A stretch of DNA of 64,000 nt from Dictyostelium discoideum (GCA_000004695.1 CM000151.3:7744001-7808000); one strand, 5' to 3'; positions 52,284-61,043 are shown, numbered from the stretch's first letter. A program made the numbers and translations. The notes: a model not told the origin generated them from the sequence alone.

Positions 52284-53187
52284 GTGAGATAGAGTTGCGA
52301 TGATGAAATTGATAATACTATTTTTTTTTTAAAAAAAAAAGATAACTTGGAAAAAAGAATATTAATTTAGTTTAACTTTTTTTTTTTTTTTAAAAAAAAA
52401 TTAATTTAGAGTCGACCCATTCACCCGTAAGGAATGGTATGTTGTAAGAGCACCAACTCAATTCTTCAAATCACCAGCTGATAACAAAGTCGGTTTCACT
52501 CCAGTTAACAGAACCCAAGGTACCAAACTTGCTTCTGATGGTTTAAAGGGTCGTGTCTACGAAGTTTCACTCGCTGATATGAAAGACGATGAATCCCAAG
52601 TCTTCAGAAAGATCAAATTAAGAGCTGAAGAAGTTGAAGGTAGAAACGTTTTAACCAACTTTTACGGTATGGATTTAACCTCAGACAAACTCCGTTCATT
52701 AATCCACAAATGGTCCACCTTGATCGAATGTTTTGTTGATGTTAAGACCACTGATGGTTATTTCCTCCGTGTCTTTGCCATCTGTTTCACCAAAAAGGGT
52801 GAATCCCAAAAGAAAAAGACCTCATACGCCAAGACCTCCCGTGTTAAGGCTATCCGTAAGAAGATGGTTGACATTTTAACCGAAACCGTCTCATCCAACG
52901 ACCTCAAAACCGTTGTTGACTATTTAATTGGTGTCTCATTAAACGGTGTTACCACTAACGCCTCTGGTTTTGCCCCAACCCTCGCTGAAAAAATCAGAAT
53001 CGAAGGTTCATCAATCTTCCCAATCCACAACGTCTTCATCAGAAAGGTTAAAGTCCTCAAGACTCCAAAAGTTGATGCTGCTAAATTATCTGAACTCTAT
53101 GCTTCATCTGCCACCTCAACCATCGCCCCAACTGAAGAAGTAGGTACCGCTGTTGAAAGAACTGAAGAAACCACCACCACCGCTTAA
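51600..53187 (+). CDS. rps3a: 40S ribosomal protein S3a (eS1), 3 exons join(51600..51607,52092..52127,52410..53187). The first 8-nt micro-exon is tentative.
   Basis: Exon 3 is [140 protein letters not shown].., i.e. unmistakably RPS3A, with high-expression codon bias (GC-rich third positions). Exon 2 is T AAA AAA AAG AAG GGA TCC AAA AAA GGT GGT AAA AA ([12 protein letters not shown]) between acceptor TTACAG at 52091 and donor GTAAGT at 52128. Proposed exon 1 is ATGGCAGA + GTACGT at 51608. It sits in a GC/pyrimidine-rich island (tactctcactcggccttttc, TOP-like 5' UTR) and gives MAD-KKKK.., consistent with MAVGKNKR.. of other S3a. Confidence 0.8.
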
Positions 53188-53354: not shown

Positions 53355-53662
53355 TTAAAATAAAACTTGTGAATCTGGTATAGTTAAATTATTTTTATCA
53401 TTAATTGAAATAGTGTTTTTACCAAATAGAAATTCAGAGGATTTTACAGTATTCTTTTTACCTTCTTCAAATAATTTAGTAATACCAATCCAACCATCTT
53501 TACAATTTACCCACATTATATTATTATAAGGTTTTGATTTATCAGTTTCTAAAAAGAAAGAACCATGTTTTAAAGTTGTTGAATTTCTATTTTCATAATT
53601 TTTGATATCTATTAATAATTGTTTATACATTTCATTTGTGGTGGTTGTGGTTGTGGTTGTGG

Positions 53663-53715
<53 letters not shown>

Positions 53716-54500
53716 GAATCTGATGGTGGTTGTAACATTTCTTTTACTTTAATTGTTTTTGCAGATTTTGATTTCTTATTGTAAATCATTGTATTTAAAC
53801 CAATGTTATCACTGAATGCTTTATAAAGAATCCAAATCTCATTGATGGTTTGTGTTGACCATTCTAATTTTGACATTTTTCTATTCACTTTTGGTGCTAA
53901 AGTTTTACCTTGTTCAGTTTGATTTTTAGCATTTTTGGAAGATTCTGGAAAATCTTGAATTGTTGACATTACACATTCACTTCCTAATTCAACCAAGTTT
54001 GTTAGTAATTGATTGTATAGGATTTTATCTTTATCATATGGTTCCAATTTAATTTGTTTTAAAATTTTACCACAGTCGAATCTTTCGTGATGTAATTCTA
54101 TCACCGAGATACCAACATTATCATCGTCGCTTAGAATTTGGTGGTAAATGGGTGCAGCACCACGATGTCTTGGTAATAATGATGGATGCATATTAATACC
54201 ACCATATTTAAATTTTGATAATACTGATTTCGGTATGAAATGTCCAAATGATACAACCACGGCCAAATCAAATAATTCATCATTACCTTGTTCACTTTCA
54301 CCAGTCGTTATCTTTGGTACTTGAAATCCTTTCATACCATTAATTGCATCAGGATATGTTATCTTTAAACCATTCTCAATTGCATATTCTTCAACTAATT
54401 CTTTTTTTTCGGATTTTGGACAAATAACTTGTAATTCTTTAACTAAATTATTTGTTTTTAATTCTAATTTTTTTGAAAAAAAAATTAATTAATAAACCAC

Positions 54501-54548
<48 letters not shown>

Positions 54549-54755
54549 CCAAAAATAAAAAGTGTTTAAAAAAAATACATACATACTTTGGTTTTCATGA
54601 AGAGATTTTAAAATTGGTAATGAAACATTATCAGTACCAAAAAATAAAATTCTATATGGAGGTGATTTAATTATTGAGGTGGAAAAATATCTAATGTTAT
54701 TAAATAGAATTGAGTTTTTATTTTTGTTGGTTAAAATAGAACGTGATAAAAACAT
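53355..54755 (-). CDS. Methionyl-tRNA formyltransferase, mitochondrial, 2 exons join(complement: 54755..54587, 54463..53355).
   Basis: Exon 1 is MFLSRSILTNKNKNSILFNNIRYFSTSIIKSPPYRILFFGTDNVSLPILKSLHENQ, a presequence plus the (I/V)LFFGTD formyltransferase start. Donor GTATGT (54586-54581); acceptor ATTAG (54465-54464), phase 1. Exon 2 has FDLAVVVSFGHFIPKSVLSKFKYGGINMHPSLLPRHRGAAPIYHQIL..GISVIELHHERFDCGKIL, the N(I/L)HPSLLP(R/K)YRGAAPI formyl-transferase signature. An in-frame poly-Thr insert (ACA/ACC)n lies at 53640-53720. Confidence 0.8.
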
Positions 54756-55231
54756 TCTTTAAATTCTAATATTTTTTTTTATTTAATAAATATGTTTTTA
54801 TGGTATTATTAAAAATTTAAAAAAAAAAAAAAATAAATGTTTTCGTAAAAAAAGCGAATATCAAAATTGATATTACGTTTTTGGCAAAAACTGGTCAAAA
54901 TGTGTTTTAATAAAAAAAAAAAAAAAAAAATCAATTTTTAATATTTTTTTTTTTTTTTTTTATTCTGAACACCAAACCCTTTTAAATTAAATTTTTCTAA
55001 ATTTCAATTAATATTTTTTATTTTTTTTATTTTTTTTATTTTTTTTTTTTTTTGCTACCCAACATAACTAATTTGTTTTATAGATTCAAAATTTTATTTA
55101 TTTGTTCATATAAATAAATAAATATATATAAAAAAAAAAAAAAGAATAAAAAAAAAAAAAAAAAAAAAATAATAAAATAATAAAAAATTAAATAAAGTAA
55201 TAATAGTAATAAAATAATATATATAATTAAA

Positions 55232-58200
55232 ATGGCAAAGGTAAAATTTTTAATTACTATTCTTTGTTTTTAAATTAATTTTTTTTAAATTAATTCCTGT
55301 CTTAATTTTTTTTTATTTTATTTTATTTTTTTTTTTATTTTTCAAATTAAGAAACATTCAAGAGAAGAAACAATAACATCACCAAGTCCAAGTGGAAATA
55401 CAACTACAACATCTACAACAAGTCCAACATCAACAACACCAACAAAAGAAAAAAGAACAAAAATTTCAAATGGAAATAATAAAGAAAAAGAAACCAATAG
55501 TAATAATAATATAAATACAAGTAATACAAATATTTTAAATGGTAGTGTTAATAGTTTAAATAATAGTAGTACAAATTTATTTACAACACATCAAAATAAT
55601 CCAGTAAAGAATTTAAAAGGATTTGATGATATTGGTGAAGGTATACTTAGATTCGAAGGATCAAAAGAAATTGATTTCATTGGATCAGTAAAGAGAGTTC
55701 ATTCAATGATGAAAGATTATTTAAAGAAAACTCCACAATATGATTACGAATTATTAAGTCAATTATTCAAATGTGATTTACAATTGAAATTAGAGAATCT
55801 TCAATTGTTTGGTGATATTTATGTTAGAAATTGTTTTAGTATCCTTTTATCAAATTATTTTAATCAAGCCAAAGATTTAGGTAAAGAGTTTAGACAAATT
55901 GGTGGTTTCGTTTTAGTGATTAATCCAATGGATATTGAAAGTCAACCAATGGTAACTGGTAGTATTTTAACTGCTCTTCATTTAAAAATGAAATGTATTA
56001 TTTATGTTGGTCCTGGTAATTTACCATTATCACAAATTACAAGAGTAAGAGTTATTATTATTTTTATTATTATTAATTATTAATTATTATTTTTTTTATT
56101 TTTATTACTAATTTAATTTTTTTTTTTTTTTTTAAAAAATAAAAGTTATATATGTGTCATGCTAGAGGTGCAAAAATTATATTTCATAAAGGTGATGTAT
56201 CATCATGTTATACAAGAGCATGGCAACATGCAAAAGATATGAGTATGGTATTTTTAGATTGTAAATTTATACCACATTTTAGTTTATTGGGTGCAGCAAC
56301 TATTGCACATGAAATGATGGAGGATAGTCCAGATAGGGAGACAATTATCATACCATTAAGATTATATTCACAGGGTTGGAGTTATGTCAGTGGTATTTCA
56401 ATTTTCTATAAGATTATGAAACCTGAAATCAAGATTATAGTAGTTCAAATGACTGATGATCTCTTTGGTAAAGATATTGAAGGTAAAGAATTTAATAGAC
56501 AATCATTATTCCCTGACCGTTTAGAGATTGGTTGGTTAGCATTAATTCATGATCAATCAGATCTTACCAATGTTTTCGACGCTTTCGATTCAAGAAATCA
56601 AGGTAAATTCTCTGATAAAGATTTAGAGGCATTATTGATAAGCATTGGTGGTGATCCAACTAGAAATAAATCAATGTGTCCAAAATCATCACTTTCTCAA
56701 ACTGAATTTGTTCATGAAGTAATCACAGAGATCACAAATGGTTTAGAGCAATTGGAGGAGAAATTTAGCTACTTTTTACCACAATTCAAATTGGATAACT
56801 TAATCAATCATAAAATCATCGATCAATTAGTAACAGCAACCGAGGATCAAGCTTCAATCGCTTTCATTAAATGTTTAGAGTATACCCATACTCTCACCAA
56901 TGGTAAGGGTTCAATTGCTTTGGGTGGTCTAATGAGTGGTAATATTCATTTAAGACCCGATGAAAAAGTATTGGTTATGTTATCAGGTGGTTATGTCGAT
57001 GTAATCGATTTTCAAACTATTTTAAACTATGGTTTAGATATCACTGGTCAAAGCTTTGAAATTGAATTGGATTTACCCGATAATACTACATCACTAAATA
57101 AAGTATTAAATGTTATTGGTGAAAATAAAGTATCAGTTATGGAGGTATTAATGGATCGTTCTTGTGAAACTTTAAAACAATATCATGTTAGAACTTCAAT
57201 TCAATGTCATTCAAGAAATTTTGAACAACAATTTAAAATCTTTGATGTTATTAAATCTTTAGGTTTTAAATATAGTTTAAGAAAATCTGCAATTCTAAAT
57301 AAAGAAGAATCTGGTTTCCTCTCACCACCAATGATTAAGCCTTCAACAAATTTATCAATTTCTCAATCAATTAATATTGGTAGTAGTGTAACGAGTTTAC
57401 CATCATTTCCAAATACTTTAAATTCAAGTAGTTCAAATGCATTTAATAGATTTGGTAATGGTAATGGTAGTTCATCAAATACAACATCACCATCACCACC
57501 ACCACAACTACCACCACAATTACAATATAAAATTTCACCAAAACCATATCATCAACAAAAAAGAAATATTGGTGATATAACAGTTCAATCAATTAGAGAA
57601 GCACATAATAGAATTAAACATATTATGACTCAACCACCCATTTATCATTCAACTACCTATTCAAAGATTTGTGGTTGCAAAGTTACATTAATGTTAGAGA
57701 ATACTCAAAAGACTGGTAGTTTTAAGATTAGAGGTTCATCGAATATGGTGTTAAGAGCATTGGAAGGTGCAATGGTAAACACTGATGAAAGACCAGTTGG
57801 TTTAGTTGCTGCCTCTGCAGGCAATCATGCTCAAGGTGTAGCTTTAATCTCTGCAAAAGTTGGTTTACCTTGTACAATCGTTTGTCCAGAGTATGCACCA
57901 GATTCAAAATTATCATCAACTCGTCAATATGGTGCCGAAGTCATTAAAAAGGGTAAAAGTCTTGAAGAGGCTGTCAAATTGGCCGATGAAATCTGTAAGG
58001 AAAGAAATTGGACATTGGTTAGACCTTACAATGATGTTGATGTAATCGAAGGTCAAGGTACAATGGGTTGTGATATCTATGATAAAGTACCAGATGTCGA
58101 TACTGTGGTTGTAAATGTTGGTGGTGGTGGTATGATCGCTGGTATCGCACTATTCTTGAAACGTATCAATCCAAACATTAGAATCATTGGTGTTCAATCA

Positions 58201-58965
58201 GCAAACGTTTCACCATTATCAGAATTTAAACAAACCAATCAATTCCGTTATATCGAACCAGCAGTTTTATCATTGGCCGATGGTACAAATGTAAAGATGC
58301 CAGGTGGTGTACACACTCAAGTACTTCATGATATGGTCGATGAGTATGTAACCGTTAGTGAAAATGAAATCGCTTCGACCATAGTTCATCTACTTTATAA
58401 TAGTCGTACAGTTTCAGAGGGTGCAGGTTGTTTAGGTTTGGCTGCATTAATGCATAAGAAAATTAAAGTTAGAAAGGATGAAAGGGTTTGTGTCATCATT
58501 TGTGGTGGTAATATCGATATGTCAACACTTCGTCAAGTCTATGAATATGGTTTACGTTCACTTGGTCGTTCTTTCACAATTCATTTAACAACTTGGGATT
58601 ATCCTGGGACCCTAAGTAAAATCATTGGTTTGGCTGCCCGTGCCGAATTAAAAGTTCGTGAAATTAGACATATCCGTGGTGGTGGTAATATCAATTGGAA
58701 TGAAGTTATCATTTCCCTCTCCTTCTATAGTAACTCTTTTAATCATCAAAACTTTTTCTTATCTCTATTGGCTCAAGAAGGTCTCTTCCCAAAGATTGTC
58801 GGTAGAAAATACATTAAAGATAATGAAATAGTCTATAAAATTTTCGATAAATCTGTTGATAAAAAGAATAAAGAATTAAAAGATACCTTTTCAGAAAGAC
58901 AACAACTATTTTTAGAACAATATGGAAAACAAGCCAATGTTTCTTTGGAAAGTAAAATGAATTAA
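55232..58965 (+). CDS. Tandem threonine-dehydratase-like protein (~1173 aa): Asn/Thr-rich N-terminus, a degenerate (lysine-less) PLP fold-II domain, then a complete threonine/serine dehydratase domain with C-terminal ACT-like regulatory region. 3 exons join(55232..55240,55352..56044,56146..58965).
   Basis: Exon 1 is ATGGCAAAG + GTAAAA (55241). Acceptors AATTAAG 55351 and A(4)G 56145; donor GTAAGA 56045. Domain 2 has ..IREAHNRIKHIMTQPPIYHSTTYSKICGCKVTLMLENTQKTGSFKIRGSSNMVLRAL..GLVAASAGNHAQGVAL..VNVGGGGMIAGIA..VSEGAGCLGLAAL..CGGNID.. plus a C-terminal SFTIHLTTWDYPGTLSKIIGLAARAELKVREIRHIRGGG.. (IlvA-type regulatory fold). Domain 1 is a parallel but degenerate copy: TPQYDYELLSQLFKCDLQLKLENLQLFGDIYVRNCFSILL. 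Here the position of the PLP-lysine (TGSFKIRG) is occupied by FGDIYVRN. Confidence 0.72.
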
Positions 58966-59165
58966 AAAATTTTTTAAATAAATAATAAAAAAAAAAATAA
59001 TAATAATAATATACAAATAAAATTATAAAATAAAATTCAAACATATATATTTAAGGAAATAAATAAAATAAATAAAACTTATATATATATATTATTATCA
59101 TTATTATTATTATTACTAATTTATTATTATATATTTTTTATTTTATTTTATTTAATTTTATTCTT

Positions 59166-59231: not shown

Positions 59232-59965
59232 TTAATTATTTGATTGTGAATCAAGAAATTGTTCAAATGCATGAGATTGTTTTCCAACAAGAGATTCTAA
59301 TCTTAATTTATATTCTCTATCAGAAACCAAAGCATTCAAAAATTTGGCTTCAACAAATTTCCAATTAATACATGACCAGAAATTTGCAATATATTTCTTT
59401 TTTTTTAAAAAAAAAAAATAAATAATTAAATAAATATTAAATAAATAATTAAATAAATAATTAAATAAATAAAATAGATTAGTATTTAAAAAAATATTAG
59501 TAATAAAATTAATGAAAATGAATAACTGTGAGTGTGTATTGATATTTACATTTTTATCACCATGGTCAGAAACGTAAGCATGTTCAAAAAGATCAAGACA
59601 TAAAATTGGGTGACAGTTTTGTAATTTTAATGGTGAACCTGATCCAAAGGTTGTGATAATTCTTAAAGCTTTATCATGGAAAACTAACCAAGTAAATCCT
59701 GGTACATTTAATGCTGATGCTGATTGTGAGAACTATTAGATTTTATAAAATATATAGTTTTAATGTTTTTTTTTTTTTTTTGTTTTTTTTTTGTTTTGTT
59801 AGTTTTTATCATTATCGTTGAAATATAATTATAATTATAATTAAATATCATTGTTAAATATATTTTATAACAAAAGGAATTGATGGGTAATATATGGTAT
59901 GTATTTTTGTTATTATTACTATTACTATTACTTTTATTATTATTATTTATTAATATTATTATCAA

Positions 59966-60017
<52 letters not shown>

Positions 60018-60432
60018 TACCTTTTGTTGGAAACCAGCAATTGAACCAAAATCTAATTCGAGTGCTTTTTTCATGTGAGCTGATGGAGTTTCTTTAATAT
60101 TTGAAATTGATCTCCAAAAGAATGAATGGTTGTAGTGAGATGATACTGATTCAAAAAATGGAGCATCCTCAATACTGGTGAATGATTGCTTGATGGCTTG
60201 GTTGATGGTAGTATCTTCCCATGGAGTTCCTAATTATTATTATTTTTATTATTATTATTATAATTATTATTTGTTGTTTCAATGATTATCAATATATTTT
60301 TATTTTTAGTTCAATTTTATTTTTGTCATTAGTAAATTATATTAACATTTAATAATAGTTCAACCTATTTGTTTTATCATATATTGTCTCATTGTCATCA
60401 TCATTATTATTATTATTATCATCATCATAATC

Positions 60433-60479
<47 letters not shown>

Positions 60480-61043
60480 ATTATTATATTAAATTGTCAT
60501 CATCAATATCACTACATCTGTTTTTTGTTTTTGTTGTTGTCGTTGTTTTTTGTTTTTGCTGTTGTTGTTTCTGTTTTTGCTTTTGTTTTTGTTTTTGTTT
60601 TTGCTTTTGTTTTTGTTTTTGTTTTTGTTTTTGTTTTTGTTTTTGATTTTGATTTTGATTTTGTTTTTGTTTTTGTTTTTGATTTTGTTTTTGTTTTTGT
60701 TTTTGTTTTTGTTTTTGATTTGTTGTAATCCTCATAATTCTATTATTGCTATTATATTTGGGAAGTAGATGGTTGAAAAAAAAAAAAAAAAAAAAAAAAA
60801 AATGAAAAAAAAAAAAAAAAAAAGGTAAAATTAAAACATACTTTGAACTAAATTATTTGCTTTTTCGATATCTTCTTGATGAAGTTTTACGTGTTGTTTG
60901 AGTGATGGTACTGACATGAAATTTTTGATACCACTATTTAAATATGGAATTTCTGGGAGTGTGTATATAAATCTTTTTTGCATTTCTGAGGCCATTGATT
61001 TTTGTACCAATGCCATTGTTTTACTAACAATATATCTATTCAT
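59232..61043 (-). CDS. sod2: Manganese superoxide dismutase, mitochondrial precursor, 4 exons join(complement: 61043..60842, 60229..60021, 59732..59550, 59396..59232).
   Basis: Exon 1 is the presequence MNRYIVSKTMALVQKSMASEMQKRF plus ..YTLPEIPYLNSG..KQHVKLHQEDIEKANNLVQ. Exon 2 is ..FFESVSSHYNHSFFWRSIS..ALELDFGSIAGFQQK. Exon 3 is FSQSASALNVPGFTWLVF..KLQNCHPILCLDLFEHAYVSDHGDKN. Exon 4 is KYIANFWSCINWKFVEAKF... These match the Fe/Mn-SOD signatures (H.NHS.FW, GSGW.WL, D.WEHAYY, IWNVINW). Donors GTATGT (60841), GTAAAT (60020) and GTAAAT (59549). Phases are 1,0,0. Intron 1 is ~610 nt and carries microsatellites. Confidence 0.75.
60519..60722. repeat. (TTTTTG)n hexanucleotide microsatellite (~34 units, a few variants) inside sod2 intron 1. 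Adjacent (ATT)n at 60400-60480 and 59940-60010.
   Basis: Regular 6-nt period gtttttgtttttg... with occasional gcttttg/gattttg variants. There are no unique spacers, so it is not CRISPR-like. It gives artefactual poly-FV / poly-KQ ORFs. Confidence 0.95.

Follow-up and report, generated by a model that had tools for sequence, protein, structure and literature searches.

Pseudoenzyme domains fused to live paralogues are a recognised regulatory design, of which the JAK pseudokinases are an example. For fold-type II PLP enzymes, our literature search turned up a single described fusion with a dead domain, nematode CBS-1. In CBS-1 of C. elegans (ZC373.1; Vozdek et al. 2012), the N-terminal module is PLP-less and inactive, the C-terminal module is catalytic, and the protein is monomeric, for which its authors propose a dimer-like packing inside one chain (PMC3316156). 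These authors knew of no other PLP-less fold-II protein, and they reported that the CBS-1 type is confined to nematodes, one of which retains the PLP site in both modules (PMC3316156). A eudicot tryptophan-synthase-beta-like pseudoenzyme is reported to be a dead fold-type II PLP protein that has been kept as a partner or activator of another enzyme (PMC12727527); unlike the Dictyostelium fusion described here, it is a separate polypeptide of a different subfamily.

Single-module enzymes provide the remaining points of comparison. The medium-form threonine ammonia-lyases of the TIGR01127 type, which are bacterial and archaeal proteins of ~400 aa (e.g. P0001), combine one PLP domain with one ACT-like domain, and resemble both modules of the Dictyostelium protein from end to end. 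In contrast to these enzymes, the Dictyostelium protein consists of two fused units, the first of which is cofactor-less, and adds an EF-hand pair, a disordered linker of ~90 aa, and a family-specific C-terminal tail. TdcB of Salmonella (2gn0/2gn1/2gn2), the best solved relative of the C-terminal module and also the top PDB sequence match of the N-module family profile (E 1.3e-17), possesses no ACT domain, EF-hand, or tandem module, whereas the Dictyostelium protein has all three. IlvA of E. coli (1tdj/9d2q), to which the N-half model is structurally most similar (E 3e-18), shares the PLP fold and carries two ACT-like subdomains per chain, the same number as in the Dictyostelium protein; in IlvA, however, these units lie side by side behind a single live PLP domain, whereas in Dictyostelium one follows each PLP-type domain, and a Thr_dehyd_C match is lacking.

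The closest likeness in overall design is to CBS-1: both proteins contain two fold-II modules per chain, the N-terminal one without a PLP site and the C-terminal one intact. CBS-1, unlike the Dictyostelium protein, belongs to the CBS subfamily and has neither ACT domains nor an EF-hand, and the two tandems are independent events, related by analogy and not by homology. The preliminary description of this locus had called a tandem dead/live fold-II arrangement unusual; this is so, but CBS-1 is a published precedent.

Gene structure and transcripts

The gene occupies positions 55232-58965 on the plus strand of the window (the whole 64,000-nucleotide stretch of D. discoideum DNA that was analysed), and all features given below lie on this strand. 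Splicing of its three exons produces an ORF of 1173 aa, identical to D. discoideum XP_642753.1 / Q86AP7_DICDI, whose annotation, 'threonine ammonia-lyase', understates the architecture. Exon 1 (55232..55240) encodes only Met-Ala-Lys, and a 9-nt first exon is also found in D. firmibasis, D. dimigraforme, and D. purpureum. It is followed by intron 1 (55241..55351; GT..AG, 9% GC), as defined by splice alignment with transcript contigs, by exon 2 (55352-56044), by intron 2 (56045..56145; GT..AG, 5% GC), which lies within the dead PLP-like domain at a position conserved in orthologues, and by exon 3 (56146-58965). GC content is 5-9% in the introns versus 26-37% in the exons, and the inter-module linker, at 31% GC and without a stop codon, is coding-like.

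Three Logan contigs (SRR24091722/25/28, ~3.65 kb each) align in three blocks to positions 55151-59011 of the window with both introns spliced out, which places the minimum extent of the mRNA, from 5'UTR to 3'UTR and through both modules, at 55151..59011. Each contig encodes the complete 1173-aa protein, with E48D as the sole difference. Because these three intron-less contigs cover both halves, the N-half and the C-half belong to one mRNA; together with the identity to XP_642753.1, this upholds the three-exon, single-chain model proposed in the preliminary description. The contrary view, that the gene model is wrong and the two halves come from separate genes or are not translated together, has a negligible probability in our estimation: a single ORF of 937 codons starts inside the N-module and continues through to the stop codon, the full 1173-codon ORF is present in three independent contigs, and four further Dictyostelium genomes have this structure, either annotated or recoverable. 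No support for this view was found, though an internal promoter may give rise to a C-module-only isoform. An operon-style context was considered and rejected, as the neighbours (ribosomal S3Ae, a formyltransferase, and an Fe/Mn-SOD family gene) are unrelated.

Two threonine ammonia-lyase units in one chain

Profile searches matched Pfam PALP (PF00291) twice in the 1173-aa protein, the N-half alone scoring 42.3 bits (E 7.7e-11; gathering score 35), and TIGR01127 (NCBIfam, ilvA_1Cterm) was the top-scoring family for both halves. Each half is a full medium-form threonine ammonia-lyase unit of the TIGR01127 type, in which a fold-type II PLP domain is combined with one ACT-like domain. The modules extend over residues ~113-615 (N-module) and ~706-1120 (C-module), and replace the earlier boundaries of 250-560 and 640-1000. 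The motifs on which the tandem was originally recognised are all present: FGDIYVRN at residues 156-163, TGSFKIRG at 757-764, SAGNHAQG at 791-798, and GGGGM at 893-897. Two points had been missed, namely that the duplication takes in the ACT domain, and that the dead module has gained an EF-hand pair as an insertion.

Outside the modules, a low-complexity region (residues 4-92; 55352..55618) that differs among close species is predicted to be disordered (pLDDT <50 for residues 1-85). The S/N/P-rich linker (residues 616-705; 57289..57558) is similarly predicted to be disordered (pLDDT <50 for residues 617-703).

The C-terminal module is an intact catalytic unit

The catalytic domain of the C-module (residues 706-1035; 57559..58548) is an intact fold-type II PLP domain, with 265-302 bits against Pfam PALP (cut-off 35). 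It matches TdcB 2gn0 both in sequence (E 2.5e-65, 37-38% identity) and in predicted fold (TM 0.91-0.93, rmsd 2.2 Å), and the module is 33-40% identical to the bacterial enzymes P0001-P0003. Lys761 (codon AAG, 57724..57726), which aligns with the FKIRG lysine of TdcB, is the predicted PLP Schiff-base lysine; K761, SAGNH (791-795), and GGGG (893-896) show no variation across the 14 family members. The catalytic domain is followed by ACT-like domain 2 (residues 1036-1120; 58549..58803), modelled as beta-alpha-beta-beta-alpha-beta, which has kept its D-x-P-G-x-L loop. The chain ends in a family-specific C-terminal tail (residues 1121-1173 and stop; 58804..58965), where an IVGR...Y..FD motif precedes charged helices; this tail is present in 11 of 11 long relatives and missing in bacterial single-module enzymes.

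The match to TIGR01127 covers profile positions 2-375 of 380, thus reaching through the ACT-like domain, and scores 359 bits. Since this is just below the trusted cut-off of 378.75, the identity of the substrate is assigned by similarity only. The C-module would deaminate L-threonine and/or L-serine, with 2-oxobutyrate or pyruvate and ammonia as products, in a catabolic, TdcB-like manner. In the preliminary description, this half had been regarded as a biosynthetic dehydratase with an IlvA-like ACT region. The PLP-lysine, SAGNH, and Gly-rich loop that it listed are all in place; the labels 'biosynthetic' and 'IlvA-like ACT' are not retained. A Pfam search of the protein at E up to 1 returned no match to Thr_dehyd_C (PF00585), and the regulatory region consists of one ACT-like domain, as in TIGR01127. 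The IlvA model TIGR01124 scored 226 bits (cut-off 411), with a match limited to the catalytic part, and the NCBIfam TdcB model NF006389 scored 307 bits (cut-off 453). That the best solved relative is the catabolic TdcB was also counted against a biosynthetic label, which should not be assumed.

The N-terminal module lacks the PLP-binding motifs

The dead PLP-like domain of the N-module is divided into two parts. Part 1 (residues 113-340; 55679..56463), which is split by intron 2 and accounts for the PALP match, aligns with the C-module and the bacterial enzymes and has a dN/dS of 0.008-0.018. Part 2 (residues 456-530; 56809..57033) is 28% identical to the C-module (BLASTP E 7e-19) and matches TIGR01127 positions 223-378. 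The paralogy of the two halves, as originally suggested, is confirmed by BLASTP of one against the other (E 7e-19 and 4e-6), by the match of the N-half to TIGR01127 (121 bits, E 5.5e-35), and by a predicted structure (pLDDT 81, pTM 0.80) for which Foldseek retrieves IlvA and TdcB structures (E 1e-15 to 3e-18).

Where FGDIYVRN is aligned to TGSFKIRG, the position of the Schiff-base lysine is occupied by Tyr160 (codon TAT, 55820..55822), as the preliminary description had noted; the equivalent position in other N-modules reads Y/Q/S/L/S/T/M. In addition, SAGNHAQ is replaced by NPMDIESQ and GGGG by RLYSQGWS, and the loss of all three motifs is repeated in the N-module of every relative. From these substitutions, the N-module is predicted to be incapable of conventional PLP binding.

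ACT-like domain 1 (residues 531-615; 57034..57288) adopts the beta-alpha-beta-beta-alpha-beta order in the model, matches Pfam ACT_4 weakly (E 0.015), and aligns with the ACT domain of P0001, which carries PF01842. Its D-x-P-G ligand loop is missing, with L-P-D-N-T in its place.

The dead module contains an EF-hand insertion

Between the two parts of the dead domain, after the strand equivalent to IIGVQ, lies an insertion of ~115 aa (residues 341-455; 56464..56808) that is absent from the C-module and from the bacterial relatives. Over this insertion, the family profile of the N-module retrieves calmodulin, ALG-2, and myosin light chain (RLC) with E values of 1e-7 to 1e-8, and the model comprises two helix-loop-helix units with bridging strands at 388-390 and 416-418. 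No column of the N-module is invariant apart from F378, G387, and F422, all of which lie within the insertion.

The presence of an EF-hand pair raises the question as to whether the D. discoideum enzyme is a Ca2+-switched dehydratase, in which Ca2+ at the dead module turns catalysis on or off. Profile and predicted structure both reveal the pair, Pfam EF-hand_6 and EF-hand_1 each match three family members, and the homologous loop passes the canonical test in about half of the members, namely the six relatives P0016, P0018, P0020, P0021, P0023, and P0091. This test, a PROSITE-style pattern, calls for 12 residues with liganding side chains at positions 1, 3, 5, and 12. In D. discoideum itself, however, EF loop 1 (DSRNQGKFSDKD, residues 382-393; 56587..56622) is degenerate and fails the pattern: in this species and in D. 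purpureum it reads DSRNQGKF[S/N]DKD, where Arg occupies position 3 and Gln position 5. Moreover, the D. discoideum sequence alone reaches Pfam EF-hand_7 only at E 0.016-0.03, which is under the cut-off, and the second loop is non-canonical in all members. The departure of the loop from the canonical pattern makes Ca2+ control of the D. discoideum protein doubtful, and we regard a Ca2+ switch in this species as quite unlikely; here, the EF-hand pair would probably be only a structural or protein-contact element.

Selection, distribution, and origin

The dead module is under strong purifying selection and is not decaying. Its dN/dS is 0.016; the C-module has 0.006-0.008 (0.007 in the catalytic domain), the linker 0.16-0.25, and the N-terminal tail 0.38-0.39. 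The dead module is also 85-94% identical to its D. purpureum counterpart, the disordered parts being 44-66% identical. One might suppose that the N-half is a functionless leftover from a duplication and is in decay, given that its PLP-binding motifs are all gone and that its rate of evolution is about twice that of the C-module. Against this, its dN/dS is 10-25 times below that of the linker and tail of the same protein, its fold is predicted with confidence, and the architecture has been retained from Dictyostelium to metamonads. The dN/dS value effectively refutes the relic interpretation, to which we attach very little credence.

Relatives were found by an exhaustive representative search of the sequence collection; word-indexed searches with the N-half, or with the alignment of its family, missed them and returned just 3-5 distant bacterial single-module enzymes. 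The tandem architecture, with an N-module that always lacks the lysine, occurs in D. purpureum and five metamonads, and the 11 long relatives come from D. purpureum, Dysnectes, Barthelona, Chilomastix, Aduncisulcus, and Skoliomonas. The lysine-less N-domain, whose retention in other dictyostelids had been proposed as a check, is thus kept in these and in far more distant eukaryotes as well. The whole architecture is old and common to Dictyostelium species and metamonad flagellates.

In neighbour-joining analyses, the C-modules are monophyletic in 200 of 200 bootstraps. The N-modules cluster together on a long branch, with internal groupings that mirror those of the C-modules, and are sister to the C-modules in none of 200 bootstraps. 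The similarity of the N-half to its own C-half is about equal to its similarity to bacterial P0001. The tandem may have arisen either by internal duplication of the C-module or by fusion of two different dehydratase genes.

Proposed role of the dead module

Enzymes of the threonine dehydratase clade act as dimers or tetramers, so the dead N-module may be taken to replace a second subunit. Because the design has been kept under strong selection in both slime moulds and flagellates, the dead copy would seem to be a built-in partner or regulator, and a fused pseudo-subunit and regulatory partner of the C-module is its most likely role, one that we favour by a modest degree. In such an arrangement, the N-module would stand in for the second subunit to form an intramolecular pseudo-heterodimer, ACT1 would pair with ACT2 as an effector-sensing unit, and the EF-hand pair would pass a regulatory signal into the pseudo-heterodimer, this signal being Ca2+ in those relatives with a canonical loop.

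Several observations touch on this partner role. The titles of 2gn0 and 2gn2 give TdcB crystals as dimer or tetramer, which speaks in its favour, as does the precedent of the monomeric CBS-1 with its fused dead module. On the other side, the disordered linker of ~90 residues would equally permit inter-chain (swapped) pairing, and the ligand loop is lost in ACT1. The full-length AlphaFold model, whose pTM is only 0.50, is taken neither for nor against the pseudo-dimer. The non-canonical EF loop of the two Dictyostelium species counts against the Ca2+ component. Our literature search returned no reports of enzymology, localisation, or interactions for XP_642753.1/Q86AP7, and no paper dealing with this protein, with any EF-hand threonine dehydratase, or with the homologues from metamonads.

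Alternatively, the N-module may have a separate job, such as Ca2+- or ligand-dependent docking or scaffolding, localisation, or amino-acid sensing in the vestigial cleft, in which case the fusion would merely co-express the two modules. Such independence would fit the strong purifying selection on the N-module, its own motifs (LKLENLQ, YTHT, and L-P-[ND]-x-T in ACT1), the EF-hand pair as its best conserved stretch, and the long flexible linker that sets the modules apart; the CBS-1 authors suggest likewise for the N-module of that protein (PMC3316156). However, every complete relative contains both modules, the branching of one subtree mirrors that of the other, and no clear stand-alone N-module was seen among the relatives, the short P0017, P0023, and P0040 looking like fragments. 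We consider a separate job improbable. To our knowledge, enzymes of the fold-type II PLP fold are obligate oligomers, and the partner role is the simpler reading for this reason.

A bolder extension of the partner role, which we put forward only tentatively, is that the present protein is the founding example of an ancient class of eukaryotic amino-acid dehydratases gated by EF-hands. In these, the fused, cofactor-less pseudo-subunit would carry a Ca2+ sensor, and the catalytic module would receive Ca2+ input (or some substitute for it in Dictyostelium) by way of the pseudo-dimer interface and the hybrid ACT1/ACT2 pair. If true, this would couple Ca2+ signalling to threonine/serine breakdown and ammonia release.

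Biological implications

Ammonia is a morphogen in Dictyostelium development, and D. discoideum depends on Ile, Leu, and Val from its diet. Partial mound arrest is reported for the knockout of 'threonine deaminase DDB_G0277245', which may or may not be the present gene (PMC12711200).

The Dictyostelium protein represents a second, independent, and much older case than CBS-1 of a dead fold-type II module fused to a live one, in a different subfamily, with the additional feature of an EF-hand pair embedded in the dead module and with selection on that module nearly as strong as on the catalytic one. It raises the evolutionary question as to why Dictyostelia and anaerobic metamonads share the design. 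As a single chain in a genetically easy organism, it offers a tractable system for the function of a dead PLP module, and it provides a hint that amino-acid catabolism may be under Ca2+ control in some protists.

Gene structure and genomic setting

The gene is formed by three exons on the forward strand (55232-55240, 55352-56044 and 56146-58965), which, when joined across two GT..AG introns, produce a 1173-codon ORF embedded in AT-rich eukaryotic DNA. The GC content of the exons is 26-37%, that of both introns 5-9% and that of the flanks 4-8%, and the stretch coding for the linker between the two modules measures 31%. An uninterrupted ORF of 937 codons begins inside the N-terminal half and extends to the stop codon. 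The 1173 aa product is identical at every residue to XP_642753.1 (EAL68808.1, Q86AP7_DICDI) of D. discoideum AX4, which is labelled 'threonine ammonia-lyase' in the databases.

The preliminary description had proposed that both halves belong to a single three-exon gene, and this is borne out by three transcript contigs of ~3.65 kb (runs SRR24091722, SRR24091725 and SRR24091728), which span both halves and align to the window in blocks 55151-55240, 55349-56044 and 56136-59011. Both introns are absent from these contigs, which must therefore derive from spliced RNA, and all 1173 residues are encoded with a single difference, E48D. A reading as two separate genes is hence ruled out, and a wrong gene model is essentially excluded by the presence of the full-length ORF in three intron-less contigs. 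The 9-nt first exon and both intron positions are shared with D. firmibasis and D. dimigraforme and are conserved in D. purpureum, the orthologue of which has a third intron in the N-module region (1767-1844 of its locus, L007) that is absent from the other three species.

Upstream of the gene lie an exon of ribosomal protein S3Ae (52579-53187, forward strand, E 3e-47) and, on the reverse strand, a gene with Formyl_trans_N/C domains (53355-54755) that looks like a mitochondrial Met-tRNA formyltransferase; neither has a functional link to the dehydratase gene. In the formyltransferase, a run of threonines is inserted, and 54489-54755 probably represents an upstream exon. The convergent downstream neighbour (~59240-61043, reverse strand) is a member of the Fe/Mn superoxide dismutase family. 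Sod_Fe_N and Sod_Fe_C domains were called in three further Dictyostelium species at the corresponding orthologous loci (L005 4110-4273, L006 4202-4284 and L007 4154-4157), so that local gene order is conserved back to D. purpureum. A long AAC/CAA-type microsatellite, typical of Dictyostelium simple-sequence DNA, occupies positions 60369-60768, where several frames read (KQ)n or poly-F/L/V.

Two threonine dehydratase-like modules in one chain

Pfam analysis of the protein finds the PALP domain twice, as had been suspected: the C-half match (729-1021) is strong, while the N-half alone clears the gathering score of 35 with 42.3 bits (E 7.7e-11). Furthermore, the two halves match each other significantly by BLASTP (E 7e-19, 28% identity between residues ~456-597 and ~962-1102; E 4e-6 for their first parts). 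The top-scoring NCBIfam model for both halves is TIGR01127, which describes threonine ammonia-lyases of the medium form, whose C-terminus carries one ACT-like domain. The C-half covers profile positions 2-375 of 380 (359 bits, slightly below the 378.75 cut-off) and the N-half matches in two stretches reaching position 378 (121 bits, E 5.5e-35). As both halves match this model along its length, the repeated unit consists of a PLP domain plus an ACT domain.

AlphaFold models made with the family alignment agree with this layout, displaying the beta-alpha-beta-beta-alpha-beta ACT pattern after each PLP-type domain. The full-chain model has a pLDDT of 72 and a pTM of 0.50, the N-half model a pLDDT of 81 and a pTM of 0.80, and residues 1-85 and 617-703 are disordered. 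The top PDB matches of the N-half model are IlvA structures (9d2q, 8y1j and 1tdj; E 1e-17 to 3e-18), followed by TdcB and serine racemases.

The C-half had initially been described as biosynthetic, with an IlvA-like regulatory region, and this label does not fit: Thr_dehyd_C, the IlvA regulatory domain, gave no match in the Pfam search of the 1173 aa protein, TIGR01124 (two-domain IlvA) scored far under its cut-off, and the closest solved relative of the C-half is the catabolic TdcB (2gn0, E 2.5e-65; Foldseek TM 0.91-0.93, rmsd 2.2 Å, 37-38% identity). By sequence, the protein is assigned to the fold-type II threonine-dehydratase clade, with TIGR01127 as its nearest family.

One intact and one substituted active site

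Both halves were aligned with three bacterial single-module enzymes and ten long relatives. The motifs TGSFK761IRG (PLP-lysine), SAGNHAQG and GGGGM, from which an active C-module had been predicted, are all present there and are conserved without change in each of the 14 family members. The N-module does indeed lack the Schiff-base lysine, which is replaced by tyrosine (FGDIY160VRN), and the loss extends beyond this residue: NPMDIESQ with a four-residue insertion stands in place of SAGNHAQ, and RLYSQGWS in place of the Gly loop. The N-module is therefore devoid of any standard PLP contact. The D-x-P-G-x-L ligand loop is retained in the second ACT domain (ACT2, residues 1036-1120) as WDYPGTL, and is exchanged for LPDNTTSL in the first (ACT1, 531-615).

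An EF-hand pair within the N-module

The C-module and the bacterial enzymes in the alignment lack any equivalent of residues ~341-455 of the N-module. With the D. discoideum sequence alone, Pfam EF-hand_7 is suggestive only (E 0.016-0.03); a profile of ten N-halves matches calmodulin, ALG-2 and the myosin regulatory light chain exactly over this insertion (E 1e-7 to 1e-8). The model of the insertion contains two helix-loop-helix units joined by short strands (388-390 and 416-418), and the D. firmibasis orthologue is automatically named 'EF-hand domain-containing protein'. The only N-module columns invariant across the whole family, F378, G387 and F422, all fall within this insertion. The site otherwise tolerates large changes, since a Logan sequence (P0018, 1344 aa, GC/Ala-rich) carries a low-complexity insertion of ~250 residues (~350-600) between the two units, and in two further relatives (P0022 and P0026) the first EF loop is expanded and degenerate.

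At the equivalent position, a PROSITE-style pattern for EF loops is matched by the loops of six relatives (DKDGDGELTRSE, DKDKNGVVSGKE, DADGDGNLTDAE, DTDESGDVTEKE, DVDQSGWLEQTD and DKNNSGIVTKND), among them Barthelona P0020 and P0021, and is failed by D. discoideum and D. purpureum, where DSRNQGKF(S/N)DKD places arginine at ligand position 3. These loops suggest that Ca2+ binding is likely ancestral in the family and doubtful in the D. discoideum protein. A true Ca2+ switch in the latter, to which the loops of the six relatives would lend some credence, is accordingly improbable.

Distribution, origin and selection

When 1.84 billion representatives were searched exhaustively by HMMER, the N-half as query gave 716 matches, the majority being ordinary dehydratases of ~400 aa (E 1e-10 to 1e-23). 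The top-ranked matches, of 877-1344 aa, share the layout N-dead/EF-hand/ACT/linker/C-live/ACT/tail, and include D. purpureum (XP_003294419), Dysnectes brevis, Barthelona sp. PAP020, Chilomastix cuspidata, Aduncisulcus paluster (GKT25912), 'Eukaryota sp. TZLM1-RC' (KAL0214707), the type isolate of the metamonad Skoliomonas litria (PMC11603281), and four environmental or Logan sequences. The lysine is absent from D. purpureum and from every other N-module covering the site (Y, Q, S, L, S, T or M), so the lysine-less domain is indeed kept in orthologues. A word-indexed search missed all eukaryotic members, including the N-half of D. purpureum at 87% identity, yet exact look-up and the exhaustive search found them in the collection; its negative result is thus not to be taken as absence.

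The C-modules form a monophyletic group in a neighbour-joining tree (200/200 bootstraps), in which the N-modules also cluster, with a fragment of another N-module (P0040) among them. The same pairings recur in the N and C subtrees (D. discoideum, D. purpureum and P0016; P0019 and P0020; P0022 and P0026), which indicates, at the sequence level, that the tandem had one old origin, by internal duplication or two-gene fusion, followed by co-inheritance. A family-specific C-terminal tail (residues 1121-1173; 58804-58965), 3' of ACT2, bears the motif P-x-I-[VI]-G-R...[VI]-[YF]-x-x-[FY]-D followed by charged helices. It occurs in 11 of 11 long relatives, is absent from the bacterial single-module enzymes, and might pack against the N-module.

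Nine D. discoideum-group sequences are 96-99% identical, with nearly all variation in the N-terminal tail and linker. Identity to D. purpureum is 85% and 91% for the first and second parts of the N-PALP domain, 83% for the EF insertion, 94% for ACT1, 96% for C-PALP and 100% for ACT2, falling to 66% in the linker and 44% in the N-terminal tail. Nei-Gojobori dN/dS estimates (dS ~0.4-0.6) against D. firmibasis and D. dimigraforme are 0.016 and 0.016 for the N-module, 0.008 and 0.006 for the C-module, 0.16 and 0.25 for the linker, and 0.38 and 0.39 for the N-terminal tail. Judging from these substitutions, the dead module is maintained by selection; that the N-half is a relic is essentially excluded, as its dN/dS is unlike that of a relic.

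Proposed working and biological context

Within a single chain, the protein combines one intact active site and two ACT-like domains with a conserved twin that lacks the cofactor and bears an EF-hand pair. Among related enzymes, TdcB, IlvA and serine racemase are dimers or tetramers, and ACT-type regulatory domains work in pairs. The simplest reading is thus an intramolecular pseudo-heterodimer, in which the N-module would stand in for the second subunit, ACT1 and ACT2 would form an effector-sensing pair, and the EF-hand insertion would provide an additional input. The reaction is most likely the catabolic deamination of threonine and/or serine, because the protein resembles TdcB and TIGR01127 and D. 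discoideum requires dietary branched-chain amino acids. We lean, with some caution, towards this overall picture; an independent docking or sensing role of the N-module is the main alternative, and a rather unlikely one.

The intramolecular-partner logic of the pseudo-heterodimer has already been proposed for C. elegans CBS-1, a monomeric enzyme that is unstable when truncated and has an N-module unable to bind PLP and a catalytic C-module (PMC3316156). The present protein shares the PLP-less N-module and intact C-module and may work in a like manner, but it belongs to a different subfamily and is of independent origin. A literature search found no publication describing this architecture, and the fused pseudo-subunit with an embedded EF-hand is new within the threonine-dehydratase clade. 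Finally, an eLife study of ammonia as a tip-organiser signal reported partial mound arrest upon knockout of the D. discoideum 'threonine deaminase' DDB_G0277245 (PMC12711200). If DDB_G0277245 is the present gene, the enzyme would have a developmental phenotype.
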